Below the pieces are notes generated by a model. It saw nothing but the letters and a program-made list of their open reading frames with translations. It made no database searches and was not told the DNA's origin. From a virus (taxonomy: Duplodnaviria > Heunggongvirae > Uroviricota > Caudoviricetes), in the IMG/VR virus record IMGVR_UViG_3300032074_000001: 64,000 nt of DNA, one strand, 5' to 3'. The position numbers and the translations under genes are program-made. Numbering within the stretch: the first letter of the stretch is position 1; every line of letters begins with the position of its first letter. Shown in pieces: positions 18,322 through 63,630 of the stretch.

Positions 18322-20157
18322 ATGACGGTGCAGCGGCGCGACGAGCAGGACATCTCCTTCATTGATGATGTCCCCGAGTCTGGACAGGTCACCCGATTCA
18401 GCCCCATTGAGGAGCTGGGCGTCACCGGCATCAAGCGAGCCGGTGGCTACGTCGATGAGGAGTTCCTGCCTGCCCTGCGTGGTCGCAAGGCCATCCAGGT
18501 CTTCAAGGAGATGTCGCAGAACGACTCCATCGTGGGTGCTCTGCTGTTCGCCATCGACAAGCTGGTCCGAGAGGTGGAGTGGAAGGTCGTCCCGGCTGAG
18601 CAGACCGACGAGGGTCAGCAGGCTGCTGACTTCCTGGAGTCCTGCAAGGACGACATGTCCCACTCCTGGGACGACTTCATCGGTGAGGTGCTCTCCATGC
18701 TCACCTACGGGTGGAGCTGGCACGAGATCGTCTACAAGAAGCGCGTCGGACCCTGGGAGACGGACGGGGCCAAGAAGTCCAAGTACGACGACGGGAAGAT
18801 CGGCTGGCGCAAGATGCCGATCCGTTCCCAGGAGACCATGCTGCGCTGGGTCTTCGATGAGAACGGCGGGATCAAGGCGCTAGTCCAGCTGGCACCCCCG
18901 CACTACAAGACCGCAGTGATCCCCATCGAGAAGTCGCTGCTGTTCCGGACCAACTTGAACAAGGGCAACCCGGAGGGCTACAGCCTGCTCCGCAACGCCT
19001 ACCGCTCCTGGTACTTCAAGAAGCGCCTGGAAGAGTTCGAAGCCATCGGTGTGGAGCGCGACCTGGCCGGTATGCCGGTGGCTCGGGTGCCTGCGGACTA
19101 CCTGAACGCGCCCAAGGGCTCCAAGCAGGCCAAGACCGTCGAGGCGTTCCGCAGGATGGTCCGTGGCGTACGGCGGGATGAGAACGAGGGCCTGGTTCTC
19201 CCGACCCAGTACGACGCCGAGACCAAGCAGCCGCTCTTCGACTTTGAGCTGATGAGCAGCGGTGGCAGCCGTCAGTTCGACACCACCGGGATCATCCAGC
19301 GTTACGAGCAGCGCATCTTGATGAGCGTCCTCGCGGACTTCATCCTGGTCGGTCACGAGGGCGTGGGGTCCTACTCCATGCACACCGACAAGACCGGCAT
19401 CTTCCGCGCTGCCCTCAACGCGATCACCAAGGCCATCGCGGACACCCTGAACCGGCACGCGGTGCCCCGTCTGTTCGCGGTGAACGGCTGGAAGCTCAAC
19501 GAGCTGCCCAAGTTCGAACCCACCAACATCGACCCGCCCGACCTCCAGCAGCTCGCTGCCTTCATCACCTCCACGGCTGGTGCCGGTATGCAGTGGTTCC
19601 CGGACCCGGACCTGGAGAAGTTCCTGCGCGACATCGCTCGGCTCCCGGAGATGACCGACGAGGCGGTGGACTACAAGCGCGAGATGCTGATGCAGCAGCA
19701 GAACATGGAGTTCGCCCAGGGTCAGATGGAGATGCTCGGACTGCGGCAGAAGGCTCAGCTCACTGCCCAGGGCTACTCGCCCGAGCAGGCGCAGATGGCC
19801 TCGGAGCAGCCCACGGCGGACATGCAGGTCCAGCAGGCCACTGGTGAGCAGGATGCTGAGCTGGCTCGGCGCAAGCACCCGGTGGGTCAGCAGGACATGG
19901 CCATGCAAGAGCAGCAGATGCAGATGCAGAACCAGCCGCCTCCCGAGGACCCGAACGAGGGTCCGCGCCACGAGCGCGAGAAGGAGAAGCTGGCTCTCCA
20001 GGACAAGACCGAGGAGAATCGCTTCAAGCGTGACAAGGAGAAGATGACTCTCCAGGAGCGACTCGCAGACCAGCAGCACAAGCGCCAGTTGGAGCAGTTG
20101 AAGCAGCGGGGCAAGGATTCCAACCGGAAGCCCCCGCAGAGAAGGGGTCGGTCATGA
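18322..20157 (+). CDS. Portal protein
   Basis: 611 aa directly after terminase; Gln/Glu/Lys-rich C-terminal tail typical of portals. Confidence 0.75.
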   Translation: MTVQRRDEQDISFIDDVPESGQVTRFSPIEELGVTGIKRAGGYVDEEFLPALRGRKAIQVFKEMSQNDSIVGALLFAIDKLVREVEWKVVPAEQTDEGQQAADFLESCKDDMSHSWDDFIGEVLSMLTYGWSWHEIVYKKRVGPWETDGAKKSKYDDGKIGWRKMPIRSQETMLRWVFDENGGIKALVQLAPPHYKTAVIPIEKSLLFRTNLNKGNPEGYSLLRNAYRSWYFKKRLEEFEAIGVERDLAGMPVARVPADYLNAPKGSKQAKTVEAFRRMVRGVRRDENEGLVLPTQYDAETKQPLFDFELMSSGGSRQFDTTGIIQRYEQRILMSVLADFILVGHEGVGSYSMHTDKTGIFRAALNAITKAIADTLNRHAVPRLFAVNGWKLNELPKFEPTNIDPPDLQQLAAFITSTAGAGMQWFPDPDLEKFLRDIARLPEMTDEAVDYKREMLMQQQNMEFAQGQMEMLGLRQKAQLTAQGYSPEQAQMASEQPTADMQVQQATGEQDAELARRKHPVGQQDMAMQEQQMQMQNQPPPEDPNEGPRHEREKEKLALQDKTEENRFKRDKEKMTLQERLADQQHKRQLEQLKQRGKDSNRKPPQRRGRS

Positions 20158-52988: not shown

Positions 52989-53245
52989 TTCTTGCTCCTC
53001 TCCAGTCGGGAGCCGACGACGGTGGCCACCGTGACCAGGTAGCCGAGGTCGTCCATGTCGATCTGTCCCTGCGTGTGCTTGATGAGATCGAGCACCGTGG
53101 TTCGCACGTACTCGATGAACACCTCATCGGGCAGGCCCAGCTCAGTCTCGGGGCTGAAGGGCGCATCACCGAGCGCCTCCATGTCCTTGTCCATCTGGAT
53201 CAGGACGGCGATGAGCGGGTTAGACTCGTTCTGTTCTTCGGGCAT
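52985..53245 (-). CDS. Acidic hypothetical protein (86 aa)
   Basis: AGGAGA RBS before ATG 53245. Confidence 0.55.
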   Translation of the reverse strand: MPEEQNESNPLIAVLIQMDKDMEALGDAPFSPETELGLPDEVFIEYVRTTVLDLIKHTQGQIDMDDLGYLVTVATVVGSRLERSKK

Positions 53246-53258
53246 GTCTCTCCTACTA

Positions 53259-53305
53259 GATCCGAAAACGAAAGAAGGGCCGCAGGATCACTCCTGCGGC
53301 CCTTC
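53259..53305 (-). terminator. Intrinsic terminator (- strand)
   Basis: GAAGGGCCGCAGG-atcact-CCTGCGGCCCTTC (13-bp stem) then TTTCGTTTTCGG on - strand. Confidence 0.65.
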
Positions 53306-53507
53306 TCTGTCGTCACGAGGGGGCTGTGGCTATCGCACTACCCTTGGGGGGCGGCTGTGCGCCACGGCTTCTGGGAAGCCCTCAACGGCTCTCGGTACTT
53401 CAGTTTCCCGAGCTGTGTTGCACCAACTGCACCAACCCCAAACACTCCGTGGTTACCACACCACTACCTGTTTGCTGTTGACGAAGGTAACTCTAGGTCA
53501 AGCGCGG

Positions 53508-53885
53508 TCACTGGTCAAGAGTGACCGGCTCCTTCGATGAGGTCGGCTCCTCGGGGAGACGACCGAACTCACCGTCCCGGTAGAACGAGGTGGTGAACTC
53601 GTACTCCGCAGCCACCTTCGAGATGTAGCCGTCGAACCGGGACGAGGCAAGGCGATCCGCCTCCTCCTGGTCCTTCATCCCCACCAGGACCACGTAGCCG
53701 TCCCGAGACGAGACGCCCAGCTCGGGGGCCGCCTTGGTGAAGGTCACGTAGTAGTAGAACTCACCACGAAACAGCCGGGTGATGTCCTTCGCGGCGACGT
53801 TCCCCGTCTCCGCGAGGTTGATCAGTGCGGAGCGGACGTTGGTGTAGAACTGGTCCAACTCCGCGTGGGTCATGCGCTTCTTCAT
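53508..53885 (-). CDS. Hypothetical protein (125 aa)
   Basis: ATGA overlap upstream. Confidence 0.5.
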   Translation of the reverse strand: MKKRMTHAELDQFYTNVRSALINLAETGNVAAKDITRLFRGEFYYYVTFTKAAPELGVSSRDGYVVLVGMKDQEEADRLASSRFDGYISKVAAEYEFTTSFYRDGEFGRLPEEPTSSKEPVTLDQ

Positions 53886-55000: not shown

Positions 55001-55034
55001 TGCCTCTCCTATGGTGAAACGACGAAACGGAACA

Positions 55035-55068
55035 CGGGTGGGGCCTCTTAAGAGGCCCCACCCGTGGT
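55035..55068. terminator. Bidirectional hairpin terminator
   Basis: Perfect 34-nt palindrome CACGGGTGGGGCCTCTTAAGAGGCCCCACCCGTG; - strand tail TTCCGTTTCGTCGTTTCACC, + strand tail GTTTTCCCTTCC. Confidence 0.65.
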
Positions 55069-57282: not shown

Positions 57283-58613
57283 TCAGACTCCGACCGGGGT
57301 CTTCAGGTTCTCGTGCGCTCGCATCCACTTGGGGTAGAAGCGCTTCAGTTCGAACTCCGTCTGGTGTTCGAAGCCTTGCTTCAGGCTCGACCGGTGGTAG
57401 CGACGAGCCTGGTACTCGGGCTGGACATGACGGTCCAGCAGCGCCCAAGCGGCCTTGGAGGCTTCGCGGAGCGACCGCTTGACCTCATCCCAGCCCTGGG
57501 TGCAGTCCGCCTGGAGCATCGGAATCCTCAGTGATCCCCTGGCCTCCTGGCGACCCTTCCAGTAGGACTTGCCCTGGAAGAGTTCGTTGTCCTTCAGGTC
57601 CTGCCTGGCCTCGACCAGAGGCATGTGAACCGGGTCCATCATCGAGAGGATGTCGGACGGCTGGTCCATGTTGTAGAGGTAGTCGAGCAGCGTCCCGAGC
57701 GTCGAGTCGCTGGCGTCGTCGGGAACACCCATCAGGTCAGGTGTCCGAGAGAACCACAGGTTCTCCCGCGCCTCCCAGGGCAGTGAAGTGTAGGTCCACT
57801 GCTCGGTGGGCTCCTCCTGCTCCTCAGCCATGGCGTGGATGGACTCGTCGTCGCTCGCCACGATGTCACCCGGCTCGACCTCGGTCGTGCGGGTCACCTT
57901 CGCGGTCTCGACGGCGTGAGCGGCAGCGTGCTTGCCGTGCGGCTGCTCCCACTCGCCCATCCGGTTCGCCATGTCGTTGGCGATCCACCCAGCCTGAGTG
58001 CGGGTGGTCGTCTTCTCCTTCTTCGGCACGGAGTGACCGCGAGATGCAGCCACCGCGTGACGGTGGACCTTCTCCTCGTACTTGTCGTGGGAGAAGGCCA
58101 GGAACATCATCACTACCGCCGAGACGACGAAGGCAGCGAACGAGATCTGGAACAGAGAGTCCAGAACGGTACGGAACATCCAGCTAATCGACCGGAGCGT
58201 CCACCCGGTCGTGCGTGCGAGGAACCTCCCGGTACCCCGAGCCGAGGTCCGAGCGGAACGTCCTAAAAAACGGGCCATCCTGCCCAGCCCACGTCCAACG
58301 GTGGCTCCACTCCAGTAGAGCCTGCGGCCAACGGCCTTGGCTCCGCGTCCAGCGGCGGATGCGCCTCGACGCATCCAGGTGACCGCAGTCGAACCTGCGG
58401 TCTTGACGGTCTCGACCGTCTTGCTAGCGCCCTTGCGGATCGCAGCAGCGGCACGCTTGGCCAACCTCTTGGCCTTGCTCCACTGCTTGCGCCACCAGGC
58501 AGCCCAGCGGGCACGCCGCTTGGGCTTCTTCACCTTCACCTTGGCAGCAGGTTCGACCGTGACCTCGTAGGTCTCGGTGACCCTGGCCGTCTCTGCGGGT
58601 GCAGTAGACATGG
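57283..58613 (-). CDS. Membrane protein with basic N-terminal region (443 aa)
   Basis: ATG (MSTAPAETARVTE...); Arg/Lys/Ala-rich segment, TM ISFAAFVVSAVVMMFLAF, soluble C-domain. Confidence 0.55.
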
Positions 58614-58684
58614 GTCCGTACCTTTCTGTTGGTTGCGTGTGCGGGTTCCAACCGATCCACCGGGTGGCTTGGGTCGGAAACGAC

Positions 58685-58726
58685 GAAAGCCCCTGCGGAC
58701 CACCTCGGTGATCTACAGGGGCTTTC
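58685..58726 (-). terminator. Intrinsic terminator (- strand)
   Basis: GAAAGCCCCTG-20 nt-CAGGGGCTTTC then TTTCGTCGTTTCC on - strand (same tail motif as the 55.0 kb terminator). Confidence 0.55.
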
Positions 58727-58731
58727 TCGTC

Positions 58732-58792
58732 TTGACGGGGGCACACTTCTCCCGTCAACTGAGATCAGTGTATCACAAACACTGTATACACC
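58732..58792 (-). repeat. Conserved intergenic element copy A (hairpin TTGACGGG..CCCGTCAA + TATCACAAAC box)
   Basis: Near-identical to 62703..62790: CTCCCGTCAACT-N8-GTgTATCACAAAC. Confidence 0.55.
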
Positions 58793-58800
58793 ACAAGACC

Positions 58801-59565
58801 TCAGCCAAACATCTCGATCTCGTCAGGCAGACGAGCCTCGTAGCCGCACGCCTTGCACTCGATGTCGGCGTGTACGGCGTAGTCCTTGGTGTAGGGCACC
58901 ATGACGTGGAACGGGGTCTCTTCGCCCCACTCCTTGCCCTGGCCCTCCTTCTTGATCCCCATCGTGTACTTCTCGTCCATCGACTTGTGGATGGTCACGA
59001 TCACTGCCGGGGACTCACACTCCGGACAGCGGATGGGGTTGGGCAGCTGGTGATTGGCCTCCGCGTGACCCACCATCGCCTCTGCGTAGCGGATCACCAG
59101 CCAAGTGGGCGGCACTCCGGTGATGTCGTGGCCATCGGTGAGCCACTGGTACATCTCATCGAAGTGATCTCGATCCACCAGGATCAGTCGCGCACGGGGA
59201 ATCCAGCCCACCTTCCCGTGCAGGTTGTGTCCGGTGTACCAGCGGGTGAGCACGAAGCTCTTCAGCAGCCGGTCTTCCCAGTCGGGGTACGTCTCAGCGT
59301 GTTGCTCGGGGTACAGCACCTCCGCGATGCAGAACTCCTCGTCCACGCCGTGGTCCATGTGCATCACAGCCACGCAGTCACCGGGAGCGATGTTCAGCTG
59401 CTCCTTGGACGGCATGATCTTGTCTTCGGTCGGGTCGTGCGCCAGACCGGTGTCCATCGCTTTGCGGGCCAGACCTCGGAGGAGGGCCTCCAACCCGTCA
59501 GGCATGTCGTCGCCACCGAAGGCGAAGCTGAAGATGCCGTCTTCTTCTGCCAATGTCTCTCCTAG
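58801..59565 (-). CDS. Hypothetical protein with C-terminal zinc ribbon (start uncertain)
   Basis: CPECESP...CKACGYE; possible TTG start after AGGAGAGA RBS. Confidence 0.45.
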   Translation of the reverse strand, partial: LGETLAEEDGIFSFAFGGDDMPDGLEALLRGLARKAMDTGLAHDPTEDKIMPSKEQLNIAPGDCVAVMHMDHGVDEEFCIAEVLYPEQHAETYPDWEDRLLKSFVLTRWYTGHNLHGKVGWIPRARLILVDRDHFDEMYQWLTDGHDITGVPPTWLVIRYAEAMVGHAEANHQLPNPIRCPECESPAVIVTIHKSMDEKYTMGIKKEGQGKEWGEETPFHVMVPYTKDYAVHADIECKACGYEARLPDEIEMFG

Positions 59566-59627
59566 TAAGGGGAGGAGGGCCAGGTAAGCGGGGGTGCCTA
59601 TGACCCTGACCCTCCTCCGTCTGGTGG

Positions 59628-60263
59628 TTATGCAGCGACCGGGAAGTTGCTCCGGTTGCGTGGTGCTGGCCGACGCCAGTGGACGTTGGCCGTGGCGAGG
59701 AAGTGCTCCTCGTCGGTCTTGATCGCCAGGATCTGACCCACCCACATGTCACCGTGAGGCAGTTCCTGGCCGTAGTTCTGACGAGGATGAGCGCAGAGGC
59801 GCATGACCTCTTCGTTCATCTCGTCCAGCTGCGAGACGTTGCCCTCGTAGCCGCGCTGTCGGATCTCGTAGCGACCACCAGCAGAGCCGGTGATCCGGAT
59901 GAACCCGTCTCCCTCGGAGTACTCGGCGTACTCCTCGGCGGTGAGCACCAGCTTCAGCAGCTCCAGGGAGCGAGCATGTGCTTCCTCTTCCCTGGCAGCC
60001 CTCTCACGGATGCGCTGGCGGTGTTCCTCGTCCAGACGCCGGTACTCCTGGCGTCGAGCCTCCAGCTCCTCTTCGGTTGGCCGAGGAGCGGGGGTAGGAG
60101 CGTAGGTGCTCGTGGTTGAGTTCCACCACGAGTTCCAGGTGTTGTCCACCCACTGACTGGAGTAGCTGCCAGTGATCGTGGTGGACGTGGTGGTCATGTA
60201 CCACTGCTGCCACTGGGTGTTCTGAACCGGGATGTAGTGCCCAGTGGAGTAGCTCGGTGGCAT
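59628..60263 (-). CDS. Hypothetical protein, S/T/W-rich N-terminus + coiled coil
   Basis: ATG in TGATG overlap (MPPSYSTGHYIPVQ...). Confidence 0.5.
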   Translation of the reverse strand: MPPSYSTGHYIPVQNTQWQQWYMTTTSTTITGSYSSQWVDNTWNSWWNSTTSTYAPTPAPRPTEEELEARRQEYRRLDEEHRQRIRERAAREEEAHARSLELLKLVLTAEEYAEYSEGDGFIRITGSAGGRYEIRQRGYEGNVSQLDEMNEEVMRLCAHPRQNYGQELPHGDMWVGQILAIKTDEEHFLATANVHWRRPAPRNRSNFPVAA

Positions 60264-60520
60264 CAGCCGCCGACGAGCTGGGGCACCATGATGATGGCCC
60301 CAGCCTCCGGGTCGAACTCCGAGATGACCTCGCCCTTCGCGCCGTCCTCGTCCACGGTGTAGGCGAGGTAGCCCTTCTTCTTCAGCGCGTCGAACTGAGC
60401 CCTGGCCCCCGCGATCTCGTCCGCGTTGCCGGGGGTCCACATGAACCGCGAGTCACCGGTCGAGTCCATGACGTGGAGAGTGCTCTGGTTCGTGTCCTGC
60501 TGGTCCTGCATGATGGTCAT
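60263..60520 (-). CDS. Hypothetical protein (85 aa)
   Basis: GAAAGGG RBS then ATG. Confidence 0.5.
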   Translation of the reverse strand: MTIMQDQQDTNQSTLHVMDSTGDSRFMWTPGNADEIAGARAQFDALKKKGYLAYTVDEDGAKGEVISEFDPEAGAIIMVPQLVGG

Positions 60521-60556
60521 AGCGACCCTTTCGGTTGGTGGTTGGTGTTGCTGGAC

Positions 60557-60620
60557 GGGCGGGCTTCGATGTGTCCCCCACTTCTCGGTCCCCCTCTGTA
60601 CCGAGATACGAAGCCCGCCC
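60557..60620 (-). promoter_or_regulatory. Nested stem-loop in 5' leader
   Basis: Outer GGGCGGGCTTCG/CGAAGCCCGCCC (12 bp) enclosing TCTCGGT/ACCGAGA (7 bp), just upstream of RBS of gene 60263..60520. Confidence 0.4.
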
Positions 60621-60632
60621 TGCTTCTGGTAG

Positions 60633-61117
60633 TTACCGAGAAGCCAGGGGGCCGAAGGTCCGACTGGTCGGCTTCGACTCAGGGAGGTAGTCGAACGCCT
60701 CAGTCCGAACCTCCAGGTACGTGCCGTAGTCGAAGAGCATCTCGGCTACGGCCTGGGAGTTGTGCTCCTTGGCGAGCACCTTGGTCTTGTACCGGATGGA
60801 GTTGTCCATGCCGGTGTAGAAGGTCTTCTTGGCATCTTCCGCGATCTTCGCGGAGGCTTCCGGGTGCTCGGACGACACGGCGAAGATCACCCCGCTGCCT
60901 TCAGCTCGTGGGTGAACTGAGCCTTGGCGCTGGTGAGGATCTCGATGGCCTGGGTGAAGCCCATCTCGATCCCCGTGTTGATGCCGTTGAAGGTGTGCAT
61001 CCGAGCCTGGTGCGTGTAGCCCCCGGCGTAGTAGCCGCTGTTGCTCTTGCACGACTCGGTGGGAAGTGCATGACACTCCGGGCACGGTGCTGCGAAAACG
61101 CTGTCGAGCTTGTCCAT
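60633..61117 (-). pseudogene. Frameshifted gene (two overlapping ORFs joined at a C4/G4 run): zinc-ribbon N-terminus + C-terminal domain
   Basis: ORF 60887..61117 (MDKLDSVFAAPCPECH...) and ORF 60633..61085 overlap; single-nt shift at CACCCC (about 60890) joins ...ELKAAG to VIFAVSSEHPE... Confidence 0.4.
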
Positions 61118-61136
61118 GTCTCCTCCTCAGAAGACG

Positions 61137-61248
61137 CAGAGGCCCCGTACCTCACAAACTCGGCTAGACGCTGGAGACAGCCGTCGAGCGGCGATCTACT
61201 CAGCGACCGGTTTACGTCTAGCCGAGCGTGAGAGGCACGGGGCCTCTG
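61137..61248 (-). promoter_or_regulatory. Large imperfect inverted repeat (two 12-bp helices, about 47-nt loop) between genes
   Basis: CAGAGGCCCCGT...CTCGGCTAGACG / CGTCTAGCCGAG...ACGGGGCCTCTG; contains CCTCACAAAC (partial copy of TATCACAAAC box); followed on - strand by GAGGAGGAGAC RBS + ATG. Confidence 0.45.
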
Positions 61249-61261
61249 TTCAGCTAGTGGA

Positions 61262-61786
61262 TCAGGAGACGAGCGCGGCCACGTTGTCCTTGTGGGCCTT
61301 GGACTGCTTGTGTCCGTTCAGACCCGAGGCGTTGTCGAAGATGCGGTCGCACGCCTCGCAGTGGTAGCCGTCCGCGTTCTCCTGGGCGGTGCCGTAGGTG
61401 AGACCCTCGCCCACCAGGTCACCGGGCTCGGTGCCTCGCTCCTGGGCCTCCAGCGCCGCCAGCTCCTCGGGGTGAGACCGGCGCTCGTGCATCTTGCGAC
61501 CCTGCGACTTGAAGTCGTTGCGGGAGCAGAACCTGCACTGGCTGCGCAGGTGCTCCGGGATCGCGCCCGCGCTGGCCTTGGAGGTGCGGGTCTCGACCTC
61601 ACGACCGAACTCGGTGGCCAGGTCGATGACCAGTGCGTACGGTGCCGTCTTCTGGCAGTCGTTGCACAGGTCGATGACCCTCATGCCGTGGATGGTCATC
61701 AGCGGGGGCAGGGTGTAGCCCTCGACCTCCTCCTGGGGGTCGAGTTGCAGGTGCCCGTCGCAGACCAGCTTCTGAATGATCGCCAT
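61262..61786 (-). CDS. C2H2-type zinc finger protein
   Basis: Two C-x2-C-x12-H-x4/5-H units: CRFCSRNDFKSQGRKMHERRSH and YHCEACDRIFDNASGLNGHKQSKAH; plus LCNDCQ. Confidence 0.6.
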   Translation of the reverse strand: MAIIQKLVCDGHLQLDPQEEVEGYTLPPLMTIHGMRVIDLCNDCQKTAPYALVIDLATEFGREVETRTSKASAGAIPEHLRSQCRFCSRNDFKSQGRKMHERRSHPEELAALEAQERGTEPGDLVGEGLTYGTAQENADGYHCEACDRIFDNASGLNGHKQSKAHKDNVAALVS

Positions 61787-61789
61787 GTG

Positions 61790-62159
61790 TTACTCAGTCT
61801 CCTCTGTGAAGTTGCGAGCGATGGCCTCCAGCCGAATCGCTCCCTTACCGTCCGCGTCGATGCGGCCGATGCCTTTTGCCAAGTAGCCCTTGGCTCCGGA
61901 GTAGTCAGCCTTTCGGTACAGCTGCACTCCGGTGGTCATGTCGATGAGCAGACGCCAGATCACGCCGCAGCGGTTGCGGCAGGTCAGGGTCTGCTCGTAG
62001 TACTTCTTGGTGCTCCCCTCCAACATCACGATGGAGACGTGGGAGGGCTTCGGTGCGTGCCCGTAGGTGCGACACGTCAGGTGAGCAGCCTTCAGGGTGG
62101 TCGCGAACTCTTCCGCGTCGTGCCGAGAGGCCGTCGTGTAGTTGTTCACTTCAGCATCC
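61790..62159 (-). CDS. Hypothetical protein (about 123 aa)
   Basis: GGAGGG RBS then GTG about 62159. Confidence 0.45.
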
Positions 62160-62363
62160 CTCCAGCTCGTACTGCGACTCGGTGATCCGGCCACTGATGA
62201 ACGGAGCGTCGTTCTTGATGCACGGCTCCGCGTTCTTCTTGTCCTGGTGCTGCATCACCATCAGCGCCAACACCATCGCCAGGCAGAAGCCCATCAGGAT
62301 GGGGATGGTGACCAGGACGACGAAGGTGCTCTTGGGAAGCACCTTGTACTCGGTCTCGTTCAT
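62151..62363 (-). CDS. Small membrane protein (70 aa)
   Basis: ATG in TGATG overlap; FVVLVTIPILMGFCLAMVLALMVM TM. Confidence 0.5.
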   Translation of the reverse strand: MNETEYKVLPKSTFVVLVTIPILMGFCLAMVLALMVMQHQDKKNAEPCIKNDAPFISGRITESQYELEGC

Positions 62364-62596
62364 GCGGTCTCGCCGCCCGTCACGGTGCTCCAGAGCCTCT
62401 GGTCCGCGTAGCGCTTGGCGCTGGCGTTGAGCCGCTCGGTCATCACCTCGTCGGGCACGGTGTTGTCCACGACATCGATCTCCCACAGCTCTTCGGGCAG
62501 CATCGCGTGCGCCAGCAGCGACAGTGCGTTTCCGAAGTCAGCGAACTGATCAGCAGTCAGGTCGTTGTCGGGGATGGTGATCGTGATTGTCTTCAC
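62360..62596 (-). CDS. Hypothetical protein (about 78 aa)
   Basis: AAGGAGAG RBS then GTG about 62596 (VKTITITIPDND...); longer track ORF would include the terminator hairpin. Confidence 0.5.
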   Translation of the reverse strand: MKTITITIPDNDLTADQFADFGNALSLLAHAMLPEELWEIDVVDNTVPDEVMTERLNASAKRYADQRLWSTVTGGETA

Positions 62597-62651
62597 TGTT
62601 CTCTCCTTGATCGCCTGGATAGTGCGTGCCGATCTCCCTCGGCGCGTCCCC

Positions 62652-62700
62652 CGGACATGCAAAAGGCCCCAAGTGTCGGGGGACAACACTTGGGGCCATG
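62652..62700 (-). terminator. Intrinsic terminator (- strand)
   Basis: GGCCCCAAGTGT-tgtcccccg-ACACTTGGGGCC then TTTTGCATG on - strand. Confidence 0.55.
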
Positions 62701-62702
62701 CG

Positions 62703-62790
62703 TTGACGGGAGAGGCGCTCTCGACAGACCTCTCCCGTCAACTAGGTTGAGTCTATCACAAACTACGCTCTACATGCAATACACGTAGGT
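62703..62790 (-). repeat. Conserved intergenic element copy B
   Basis: TTGACGGGAGAGG-13 nt-CCTCTCCCGTCAA then CTAGGTTGAGTCTATCACAAAC; overlaps stop of gene 62756..63064. Confidence 0.55.
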
Positions 62791-63064
62791 CTTCTTCGTA
62801 GTTCGCGATTCGGCGCTTGGCATTGCGGTCCATTGATTCGATCCACGCCACCAGGCCAGCGTGCAGCAGCGCGATGAGCAGGCTGTAGGTGTGTCGCCAC
62901 TCCCAGAACAGCCAGAGTTGGCCGAAGAACCAGATCGTTCCCCAGACGATGGTGGCTCGTCCCGCCCACTTGGCCAGATTGAGGGTCTTGATCCGATCTC
63001 GGATCTCCTCCTCAGTCACCGGGCTCACCGGGTGGAGTGCTGCGTCGGCCCGACTTCCATGCAT
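62756..63064 (-). CDS. Membrane protein (2 TM, 102 aa)
   Basis: ATIVWGTIWFFGQLWLFWEW and LLIALLHAGLVAWI helices. Confidence 0.55.
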   Translation of the reverse strand: MHGSRADAALHPVSPVTEEEIRDRIKTLNLAKWAGRATIVWGTIWFFGQLWLFWEWRHTYSLLIALLHAGLVAWIESMDRNAKRRIANYEEDLRVLHVERSL

Positions 63065-63293
63065 GCCCGAGCGCGAGCGTCAGGGGGCACTCGGGGTTCC
63101 CGCACCAACAGACGTAGCAGTAGGCGTCCGCATCGTCCTCCGGCCCCTGTCCGCGCTCGTTCACGCCCATCGGCAGGTGGGCGGGCATCATGCCGTCGTC
63201 GTAACCGAGCCTGTCCCAGAATCCCGGCTCGCCACCTGACGCCGCACCGAGCGGACGCCCACTGTGCGCTGACTCGTTCTTTTGCTCACTCAT
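63012..63293 (-). CDS. Hypothetical protein with CxxCxC..C motif (overlaps next gene start)
   Basis: ATG (MSEQKNES...); CYVCWCGNPEC. Confidence 0.35.
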   Translation of the reverse strand: MSEQKNESAHSGRPLGAASGGEPGFWDRLGYDDGMMPAHLPMGVNERGQGPEDDADAYCYVCWCGNPECPLTLALGHAWKSGRRSTPPGEPGD

Positions 63294-63630
63294 TGGCCTC
63301 AGCCTCACGCTTGCGCCTACGAGCCAGCGACTCCGAATCACGCTTGCGCTTGCACAACAGGCAGTAGCGCCAGGGCTTGCCCTCCTTGATCGGCCTGCCC
63401 CACTCCTCCATGTCGTGATCGCGCTGGCACTTCTCCTTCAGTCCCTTGGGAGTGGACTTGGGCGTGTACACCCCGGCCTTGGTGAGCCGGTCGTACACGG
63501 TCTGCCGACCCAGCCCGGTGGTCTCCACCAGCTCGGTGATGGTCACCTCGCCGGTCTTCCACCGCTCCACCATCGTCTCCCGCGCCTGCTGCATCGCGGC
63601 TTGGATGATCTGTTCCAAGCTGAGGCTCAC
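63286..63630 (-). CDS. HTH DNA-binding protein with C-terminal zinc ribbon/basic tail
   Basis: ITELVETTGLGRQTVYDRLTKAGV HTH; ...CQRDH..YCLLCKRKR. Confidence 0.55.
   Translation of the reverse strand: MSLSLEQIIQAAMQQARETMVERWKTGEVTITELVETTGLGRQTVYDRLTKAGVYTPKSTPKGLKEKCQRDHDMEEWGRPIKEGKPWRYCLLCKRKRDSESLARRRKREAEANE

Follow-up and report, generated by a model that had tools for sequence, protein, structure and literature searches.

Copies A (58732-58796) and B (62702-62779) of a conserved cassette of ~150 nt lie between or at the ends of - strand genes in the 64,000-nucleotide stretch of phage DNA analysed here (the window), at the positions where a sequence-only reading had placed them. The box TATCACAAAC has two exact matches in the 64 kb (58771-58780 and 62754-62763), a count that is not significant by itself, at least two matches also arising in 22 of 100 shuffles; the composite motif TTGACGGG-N(6-30)-CCCGTCAA likewise has two matches (58732-58758 and 62703-62741), with 0.00 expected from shuffles. 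The full 77-kb genome holds exactly three copies, the third of which, copy C, lies 2.2 kb past the end of the window and heads the same - strand gene block. This early block spans ~19 kb, with one cassette at its head and two more 3.6 and 7.6 kb further in, and every copy is oriented with the genes, on the - strand in this genome. Copy C sits in a divergent region directly before the first gene, with no upstream gene on its strand. Copy B overlaps the stop codon of gene 62756..63064, as had been noticed, the TGA at 62758..62756 serving as the TGn of an extended -10 element.

When the - strand is read, the TATCACAAAC box gives this extended -10 element, TGnTAnACT (reverse complement GTTTGTGATAcACT), with TTGnnn 17-18 nt upstream; the box and hairpin had originally been interpreted on the wrong strand, and the hairpin therefore lies downstream of the promoter, at the 5' end of the transcript. 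A sigma-70/SigA-type extended -10 pattern (TTGnnn, 17-18 nt, TGn, TAnnnT) fits all canonical copies. In copy A the -35-like hexamer TTGTGG (58791..58796, - strand), a pattern match whose TTG is aligned in 10 copies, stands 18 nt upstream of the -10 hexamer; the extended -10 TGATACACT occupies 58767..58775, the reverse complement of part of the box at 58771-58780, and an invariant AG at 58759..58760, 7 nt after the -10, is the transcription start predicted from the alignment. The corresponding elements of copy B, also on the - strand, are TTGCAT (62774..62779), inside the 3' end of gene 62756..63064, the extended -10 TGATAGACT (62750..62758), which contains that gene's stop codon, and the AG at 62742..62743, again a start predicted by alignment. 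The promoters thus read TTGTGG-18-TGATACACT in A, TTGCAT-18-TGATAGACT in B and TTGTGT-17-TGGTACACT in C. The TG, TA and ACT columns and the AG (A48, G49) are invariant in the 10-copy alignment, the TTG aligns 17-18 nt upstream, and the -35/-10 spacer is unusually conserved (ATAGAG), in phages whose flanking proteins are just 30-40% identical. A generic pattern, TTGnnn-N14/15-TGnTAnnnT, has four matches in the 77-kb genome, all on the - strand at intergenic or gene-end sites of the block and three of them cassettes; simulations gave a mean of 0.64, with at least four in 3 of 300. In ~80 kb of the relatives' loci the same pattern finds cassettes only (7 of 7). The invariant AG is the likely transcript start; promoter activity and start site are predictions, and sigma specificity and terminator efficiency can be no more than guessed.

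At the predicted start opens the TTGACGGG...CCCGTCAA hairpin, here termed P1. In copy A it takes the form UUGACGGG-AGAAGUGUGCC-CCCGUCAA (58732..58758, - strand), on the evidence of covariation across copies, and in copy B GUUGACGGGAGAGG-loop-CCUCUCCCGUCAAC (62702..62742, - strand), a 14-bp stem indicated by the fold and the composite-motif match. In the folds of all 17 leaders from this and related genomes, 0-4 nt lie between the predicted +1 and the first base of P1, and the leader RNAs are far more stable than shuffles (z = -7.5 for A and -8.7 for B). Nearly the entire leader RNA is double-stranded, with 1-5 nt between its two hairpins in A and B. In its smallest form P1 has a 7-bp stem and a 9-nt loop, in its largest it is a multi-branch domain of ~80 nt, and its arms lie 11 nt apart in A, 13 nt in B, where they are longer, and ~80 nt in C. 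Only the lower stem is common to the copies, and this is the part that covaries: with the arms registered by hand, which biases the counts in favour of structure, 82.7% of cells are paired and five pairs carry double changes, the covariation score is reached by 0 of 500 shuffles, and shifting the 3' partners by 1-3 columns lowers pairing to 17-48%. In the related genome L003, the orthologue of copy B (L3-B) has five consecutive pairs swapped by double compensatory changes (GUGAGUAGG/CCUACUCAC), another copy in that genome keeps UUGACGGG, and each version has its matching partner arm. Wobbles are G.U on the gene strand in five cells and on the opposite strand in one. The sequence of the 5' arm is strongly conserved across phages, and all 13 canonical copies carry the same purine-rich 5'/apical motif, GGAGARG(U); the Shine-Dalgarno (SD)-like motif is wholly base-paired in B-type copies.

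The terminator-like hairpin reported beside each copy on the - strand is present; its order relative to the promoter is the reverse of that first proposed, the terminator coming after the promoter. In copy A, a GC-rich hairpin GAAAGCCCCUG...CAGGGGCUUUC with the U-rich tail CGUCGUUUCC (58676..58730, - strand) is a predicted promoter-proximal intrinsic terminator, ahead of a gene that starts at 58611. It failed a strict scan because the tail CUUUCGUCGUUUCC that follows its hairpin at 58730..58680 is weak; in the whole block that scan called only the terminator of copy B (62661..62697, - strand), a 14-bp stem (62697..62665) followed by UUUU, with 14 pairs, 9 of them GC, and the tail TTTTGCATGT. 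Beyond it (62593..62660, - strand) come the motif GCAUGUCC, which recurs after most cassette terminators, and a 21-codon ORF whose AUG lies at 62658..62656 and whose UGA stop shares nucleotides with the GUG (62596) at which the following gene starts; in copy C, ~30 nt separate the terminator from the start codon. All 17 leaders show, downstream of the promoter, a GC-rich hairpin with a U-rich tail after it; the tail has 4-7 U in 8 nt as measured for the first 11 (the other six were read from folds) and is weak in copy A and in L4-A. The terminator stem ends at +62 to +115 in the first 11 copies, with no ORF between promoter and terminator. By eye, each of the six predicted promoters of the block is followed, ahead of any ORF, by a hairpin whose tail is U- or T-rich. 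Also by eye, a hairpin with a T-rich tail, not called by the strict scan, lies just before the -35 of copy C, and a divergent-region promoter at 66667 seems to drive a non-coding RNA of ~290 nt with a hairpin/T-rich end.

A supposed partial third copy inside the inverted repeat at 61137-61248 is not confirmed: CCTCACAAAC there lacks TGnTAnnnT, an AG start and P1, and belongs, as the 3' arm, to a distinct long hairpin that is conserved in its own right, with 32 pairs, 10 of them showing compensatory changes, across four phages.

Thirteen canonical copies occur in eight related uncultivated phage genomes, and two more distant relatives (L032 and L034) have the same architecture with entirely different stem sequences, for a total of 17 cassettes in 10 genomes. 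The A-type cassette always lies upstream of a homologue of a 442-aa protein (six genomes). Most contigs of this uncultivated clade measure ~50-82 kb, and its closest cultured relatives by DnaE are actinophages; no cassette copy was found in cultured phages or bacterial genomes. Rfam gave no match at gathering score in the window, and searches around the copies at E<=5 or E<=1 brought up no relevant family; of the 20 neighbouring gene products, Pfam and PHROGs recognised none as antiterminator-like, NusG-like or RNA-binding. The hairpin, the adjacent terminator-like hairpin and the recurrence in relatives bear out the earlier view of a conserved intergenic regulatory cassette, and among the roles then listed, that of a promoter cassette restarting transcription of successive - strand gene sets fits.

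From the anatomy, copy number, conservation, covariation and strand observed in the sequence, we propose, with modest confidence, that every copy works on the - strand as an early-promoter/leader/attenuator cassette, with downstream genes expressed by read-through and P1 acting as a cis RNA. A host primary-sigma-type promoter (TTGnnn-N17/18-TGnTAnACT) would fire at the invariant AG, and the first 30-80 nt of the transcript would fold into the 5'-terminal P1. Polymerase would then meet the GC-rich hairpin and U tract 62-115 nt from the start, ahead of any ORF, so that the default product would be a leader RNA of ~70-120 nt and downstream genes would be expressed only through read-through of the promoter-proximal terminator. 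The site of copy C and its ~30-nt gap between terminator and start codon count in favour of a need for read-through, as do the hairpins seen by eye after all six predicted promoters of the block. One cassette would open the early block and the two further ones would re-boost transcription inside it. P1 may license read-through in a nut- or put-like manner, alone or with a factor, may protect the mRNA 5' end, or may do both; termination and all of these P1 functions we infer from sequence. No ORF separates promoter from terminator; an antiterminator encoded by the phage would need to be supplied by leaky read-through or by another source. The entirely different stems of L032 and L034 make it unlikely that one conserved host partner recognises the hairpin as a whole. 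The recurrence in relatives suggests that early genes are under regulated read-through. A doubtful possibility is that P1, at the 5' end of a short nascent RNA, makes only polymerases from the adjacent promoter terminator-resistant while those arriving from upstream stop. If so, the cassette would insulate and restart transcription units while keeping its own output, by an antitermination logic that is protein-independent or host-factor-dependent and that, to our knowledge, has not been described for actinobacterial phages.

A plainer account, to which we give perhaps a quarter of our belief, is punctuation: the terminator would end and 3'-protect the upstream mRNA, the promoter would restart transcription, and P1, with its SD-like motif, would be a generic 5' stem-loop shielding the RNA from 5'-end-dependent RNases, the promoter-first order being incidental and the terminator leaky. 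Known stabilisers of this kind are the 5' hairpin of ompA (Emory, Bouvet and Belasco 1992) and the STAB-SD of cryIIIA (Agaisse and Lereclus 1996), both listed in the review PMC3997798. The cassette shares with them a hairpin placed only a few nt from the 5' end, as well as an SD-like motif not used for initiation: if the predicted +1 is taken as the 5' end, P1 lies within ~4 nt of it in 17 of 17 leaders, as such stabilisers require, GGAGAGG/GAGGUG is similar to the phage's own ribosome-binding sites (AAGGAGA), and stem sequences are free to vary between clades. However, those elements have no coupled terminator, and punctuation leaves unexplained why the terminator is always downstream of the promoter (17 of 17), and why copy C has its own although no gene lies upstream on its strand and a separate hairpin with a T-rich tail (by eye) already precedes its -35. 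Nor does it sit well with the full pairing of the SD-like motif in B-type copies, or with a 5' arm conserved across phages beyond the need of a generic hairpin.

It is improbable that the copies encode a trio of paralogous small RNAs, ~70-120 nt long and built from a 5' hairpin followed by a terminator hairpin, that act in trans as decoys or regulators, with downstream expression a leaky by-product. Each does have its own predicted promoter and terminator and lacks an ORF between the two, the 5' sequence is conserved, a trait shared with many sRNAs, and the 66667 promoter also seems to drive a non-coding RNA; yet RNAs almost wholly double-stranded, with linkers of 1-5 nt in A and B, do not present an evident seed, the rest of the genome yielded no complementary target when up to two mismatches were allowed, and synteny before particular genes is strict, as with the A type and the 442-aa homologue. 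Least credible is a DNA-level element: the operator already suggested, bound by a dimeric repressor or by a roadblock protein, or else an initiation signal of cruciform or single-strand type. In its favour stand a perfect inverted repeat immediately past the start, the site at which roadblock repressors act, nearby genes for HTH-like proteins (63286..63630 has a weak HTH_7 match) and a conserved ATAGAG spacer that could be a separate protein site. Against it, the distance between the arms varies from 11 to ~80 nt while that to the promoter +1 is fixed, G.U wobbles are tolerated on one strand only, and L003 carries both the UUGACGGG and GUGAGUAGG versions with compensatory changes in matching arms.

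The favoured read-through cassette can be compared with several known systems. In phage HK022, putL and putR are cis-acting structured RNAs just downstream of early promoters, with copies that share sequence and with terminators ahead of the early genes (PMC9378689). Like put, the cassette occurs in several similar copies, each with a hairpin starting at +1 after a predicted early promoter. The put RNA, ~70 nt long, has a defined two-stem structure and docks on the zinc-binding domain of beta', whereas the cassettes share the single stem P1, with inserts from a 7-nt loop to an 80-nt domain, their second hairpin is a terminator, and there is no sequence or Rfam similarity; put-like activity is putative, and the size variation of P1 is awkward for an RNA that must dock on polymerase in a defined shape. 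As in lambda N/nut, a small hairpin with a conserved apical motif lies in an early leader upstream of terminators, in several copies per genome. In lambda, however, the N gene lies between promoter and terminator, whereas the cassette terminator follows 5-50 nt on with no gene between; a non-rigorous look identified no boxA beside the hairpin with its fixed purine motif, and Pfam and PHROGs recognised no N-like arginine-rich protein among the 20 neighbours, N-like proteins being small and poorly modelled. The arrangement also recalls lambda PR'-qut-tR' (6S RNA), in which a constitutive promoter and a close intrinsic terminator yield a default short RNA and a read-through-dependent long operon, and the conserved promoter spacer could, like qut, be a DNA site. 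Unlike lambda Q/qut, no canonical copy has a TAnnnT pause element in +1 to +25 (these first 25 nt are without any TA), no Q-like protein was found, and three copies stand in the early block rather than one before the late genes.

The early promoters of T4 and A1-A3 of T7 are near-identical strong host-sigma promoters conserved beyond the hexamers. The cassettes likewise provide several predicted promoters serving an early block, but those families are not known to carry a conserved transcribed hairpin and terminator immediately downstream. Mycobacteriophage genomes carry dozens (~20-30) of stoperators, short asymmetric repressor sites of 13-14 bp, and start-associated sequences lie directly before start codons. 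The likeness to these, proposed earlier, is that of short conserved repeats found between genes, aligned with the direction of transcription, in a genome that is actinophage-like; it ends at three copies instead of dozens, each with a promoter and 120-150 nt from a start codon. Promoter-coupled terminators, which precede the following start site by ~10 bp (Fletcher et al., bioRxiv 10.64898/2026.08.19.745784), similarly combine terminator and promoter in one short intergenic region between tandem genes; the cassette has the reverse order, promoter first and terminator 60-115 nt downstream. By eye, the hairpin before the copy C -35 (CUGGGGG-UUGUUGUGUG) resembles that promoter-coupled arrangement.

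Compact, and provided with natural covariation and variants, the cassette suits disrupt-and-restore experiments, and it supplies ready annotation marks (promoter, start site and terminator) where almost all early proteins lack known function. Should the terminators be merely leaky punctuation, it would represent an ordinary but well-defined family of early promoters. We know of no report that phages of this lineage control their early genes by antitermination or attenuation; if the read-through reading is true, a broad clade of uncultivated phages would gate its early genes by promoter-proximal terminators and a conserved leader hairpin.

Two copies of the element had been claimed from the sequence alone, and both are present in the window: the composite TTGACGGG-N-CCCGTCAA occurs only at 58732–58758 and 62703–62741 and was absent from 100 shuffles, while the box TATCACAAAC has two matches, at 58771–58780 and 62754–62763, and none elsewhere in the window. 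Every gene from ~47.3 kb to the end of the window lies on the - strand, so the element must be read on that strand, on which the box is the reverse complement of GTTTGTGATA and adjoining bases. Copies A (58732–58796) and B (62702–62779) then share one order of parts: the end of the upstream gene, TTGnnn, 17–18 nt, an extended -10 (TGnTAnACT), 6 nt, and an invariant AG, followed by the P1 hairpin at the predicted transcript start (UUGACGGGAGARG...CCCGUCAA), a GC-rich hairpin with a U tract, 30–70 nt of A/C-rich sequence, and finally the next gene with its ribosome-binding site. In copy B, the TGA within TGATAGACT serves as the stop codon of gene 62756..63064. The regulatory role proposed in the sequence-only reading holds insofar as a promoter cassette and a terminator are present; its strand, its order of parts, and its analogy to stoperators do not.

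The promoter reading is supported independently of the hairpin. The generic pattern TTGnnn-N14/15-TGnTAnnnT leaves P1 out and matches at four places in the 77-kb genome, all on the - strand: the three cassettes (A, B, and a further copy, C) and one additional promoter 300 nt upstream of copy C; the simulated expectation has a mean of 0.64, with four matches reached in 3 of 300 simulations. Across ~80 kb of relatives' loci, all seven matches were cassettes, and a promoter weight matrix applied to the rebuilt genome returned exactly three sites—copies A, B, and C. In an alignment of 10 copies the TG, TA, ACT, and AG columns are invariant and TTG is aligned; the promoter spacer is unusually conserved (ATAGAG) and could be a protein site. 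Two other promoter assignments were rejected: a plus-strand promoter, TTGACG-N17-TCAACT, has a spacing of 17 nt in copy A versus 29 nt in copy B, and TTGACG as the -35 of a second - strand promoter is followed by no conserved -10.

The window is a circular permutation of an ENA metagenome contig (ERZ27247513 k141_2907800; 77,167 bp), the ends of which join at ~30480 of the window (30480/30481). The two sequences differ by at least one base, near window 63971, and the window probably comes from an assembly near-identical to the ENA contig. Copy C (L001:2244–2400) lies in the 13 kb beyond the window, within a 1-kb divergent non-coding region and directly before the first gene of the - strand block. 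Its arms, AGUUGACGGG and CCCAUCAACU, enclose an ~80-nt domain with two inner hairpins; the terminator (GAAGCCCCAGAGG...CCUCUGGGGCUUUUUG) follows the P1 domain, with the start codon ~30 nt beyond. The divergent region (L001:1410–2428; ~66184–67200 in window numbering) separates the early block from the DnaB-primase-DnaE genes and carries three tandem same-strand promoters (TTGACA-16-TACGGT, TTGTGG-17-TGTTATAGT, and cassette C), each followed, by reading of the sequence, by a hairpin with a U-/T-rich tract; the region may serve in control or as an origin.

Relatives were traced through homologues of the 442-aa protein encoded downstream of copy A, through DNA-pattern searches of metagenome and IMG/VR collections, and through AAA-ATPase homologues, which numbered 120. 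Canonical cassettes number 13 copies in eight phage genomes, and two more distant relatives contribute four further cassettes (three in L034, one in L032) with the same architecture and different P1 stems. All 17 leaders fold alike: a 5'-terminal hairpin begins 0–4 nt from the predicted +1, an additional hairpin follows in some, and the last element is in every case a GC-rich hairpin with a U-rich tail. Searches of 50,697 cultured-phage records (Megablast and blastn with 5.5–7 kb around the copies and with a 66-nt consensus) gave no true match; judged by DnaE, Gordonia phages (36% identity) come closest among cultured phages. IMG/VR returned no matches to the motif spacing originally described, true copies in only two viral contigs with relaxed patterns, and no relatives in a single-protein search with the AAA ATPase. 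Further relaxed-pattern matches (L021–L026) proved to be unrelated promoter-RBS sequences, and nine matches in a genome collection were attributed to chance, as these lack TGn and a terminator, leave the hairpin unclosed, and fall in unrelated bacterial taxa. Rfam gave no relevant match around the copies, a tRNA/tmRNA search found none, and the cassette is not known to resemble CRISPR repeats.

P1 is conserved as a structure, most likely in RNA of the gene strand. Pairs were counted on hand-registered arms, since MAFFT misregistered the 3' arms in an attempted covariance model, and the counts are biased towards the structure to that extent; across 11 copies, 82.7% of cells pair, five of ten pairs have changed on both sides, and the covariation score was reached by none of 500 shuffles. 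Sliding the partners by 1–3 columns reduces pairing to 17–48%. In the relative L003, the copy before the B-type gene (GUGAGUAGGAGAGG/CCUCUCCUACUCAC) differs from window copy B by five consecutive double changes while a second copy retains UUGACGGG, and the coexistence of two stem versions in one phage argues against a single sequence-specific DNA-binding protein. A-U to G-C changes occur in L027 and L028, and wobble cells favor the gene strand (five G.U versus one on the opposite strand). The motif GGAGARG(U) is unchanged in all 13 canonical copies, whether in the stem (B types) or the loop (A types), which indicates a sequence constraint additional to structure; similar apical motifs occur in the distant relatives (GAGAGCUAUGCC in L032, GUAGGUGUGCCC in L034). 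Candidate partners are a protein, the polymerase, and the 30S subunit, the last because the motif is Shine–Dalgarno-like.

Turning to the terminator, it lies downstream of the promoter and before any ORF in 17 of 17 cassettes. That of copy B passes a strict scan (14 pairs; tail TTTTGCATGT) and is the only one called in this region; the tail of copy A is weaker. Copy C has no same-strand gene upstream and, as we read the sequence, a distinct hairpin with a T-rich tail directly before its -35, so that its terminator would act only on polymerases that started at one of the divergent region's tandem promoters, mostly its own. Behind this terminator, with no space for another promoter, sits the block's first gene, and the other predicted block promoters (66991, 66667, and 53518) each lead into a non-coding stretch ending, again by reading, in a hairpin with a U-/T-rich tract. 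The early genes would thus sit behind promoter-proximal terminators, with polymerase read-through as the point of the cassette.

Beyond the terminator U tract there is usually a (G/U)CAUG(U/C)C motif (window 62653–62660 and most relatives' cassettes). In copy C, L010, L005, and L027, its AUG shares the reading frame of the annotated start and no stop codon separates the two; in copy B it begins an ORF of 21 codons, the UGA of which overlaps the next gene's GUG start (62596). Such AUGs may be genuine start codons, belong to upstream ORFs, or have arisen by chance. The apex of the copy B terminator, GUCCCCCGAC, is a near-exact reverse complement of GUCCGGGGGAC just past the terminator (62675–62684 and 62646–62656, - strand), a complementarity kept in the orthologous L003 copy (near 1300–1350) that could form a pseudoknot or alternative pairing in read-through RNA.

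In lambdoid early and late control, genes lie behind terminators to which the polymerase has to become resistant, and the cassette layout follows the same logic. In HK022, two similar RNAs just after the early promoters make the polymerase terminator-resistant (PMC9378689); in the cassette, by comparison, P1 is not constant in size and the terminator itself forms the second hairpin. Unlike the lambda N/Q systems, the cassettes lack a -10-like pause signal within the first 25 nt, and protein-family searches of 20 neighboring genes gave essentially no matches and no recognizable antitermination factor. A classical antiterminator was rejected, as P1 and the terminator do not overlap and offer only ~5-bp alternative pairings. 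Regulated or licensed read-through involving P1 is a substantial possibility, if somewhat short of an even chance, while the broader description, with P1 as a read-through signal, a 5'-end stabilizer, or both, is slightly favored; the two roles are not mutually exclusive. A generic stabilizer combined with leaky punctuation, akin to known 5'-terminal mRNA stabilizers (Emory et al. 1992; STAB-SD, Agaisse and Lereclus 1996, as cited in PMC3997798), would match the position of P1 and its SD-like motif but leaves the terminator unexplained, and we consider it rather doubtful. Three paralogous trans-acting small RNAs are improbable, as the RNAs are almost wholly double-stranded and the P1 arms have no target in the genome at ≤2 mismatches. 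A DNA operator is very improbable given the variable arm spacing and the compensatory variants inside one genome.

Other structured features accompany the block. The stretch at 61137–61248, taken in the sequence-only reading for a partial third copy, is a different element: it has no promoter, AG start, or P1, and what resembles CUCACAAAC is simply its own 3' arm. This long - strand hairpin (arms of ~34 bp) recurs at L003:2990–3100, L004:430–570, and L027:1–110, with compensatory changes in 10 of 32 predicted pairs among the four phages. It lies directly downstream of gene 61262..61786, the product of which matches the dsRNA-binding zinc-finger family zf-C2H2_jaz (E 1e-5), and may serve as a processing site of the RNase III type or as a target of that protein. 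At ~53245–53518 (- strand; L003:11005–11262, L004:8148–8405), a promoter-like TTGACC-17-TAGAGT precedes a ~230-nt non-coding leader, conserved in three phages, with a terminator-like hairpin at its end just before the next gene; this candidate structured leader or ncRNA had no Rfam match. Within the early block, the AAA ATPase gene is followed by a perfect GC-rich palindromic hairpin of 15 bp (55033–55066). T-rich tails on both strands give it the look of a bidirectional terminator, and no promoter is predicted directly behind it. Genes 59628..60263 and 58801..59553 are separated by an intergenic GC-rich hairpin that lacks a U tract (59564–59626), and L003, L004, and L027 have similar hairpins in the corresponding position; the weak Rfam match of the window hairpin to mir-1249 was dismissed as chance. 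In the structural region, six + strand genes starting near 20154, 27455, 31584, 31843, 32862, and 34142, detected by a repeat finder as families D5 and D12, share an N-terminal peptide, M(x)SAFGV(D/E)HG(E/D)..SK, which may be a targeting or processing signal for virion proteins.

Together, these comparisons define, at the level of sequence, a new and well-delimited family of predicted promoter-leader-terminator cassettes in an uncultivated phage clade. By its layout the family belongs to a known kind of phage early-transcription control, the mechanism of which is here a prediction.
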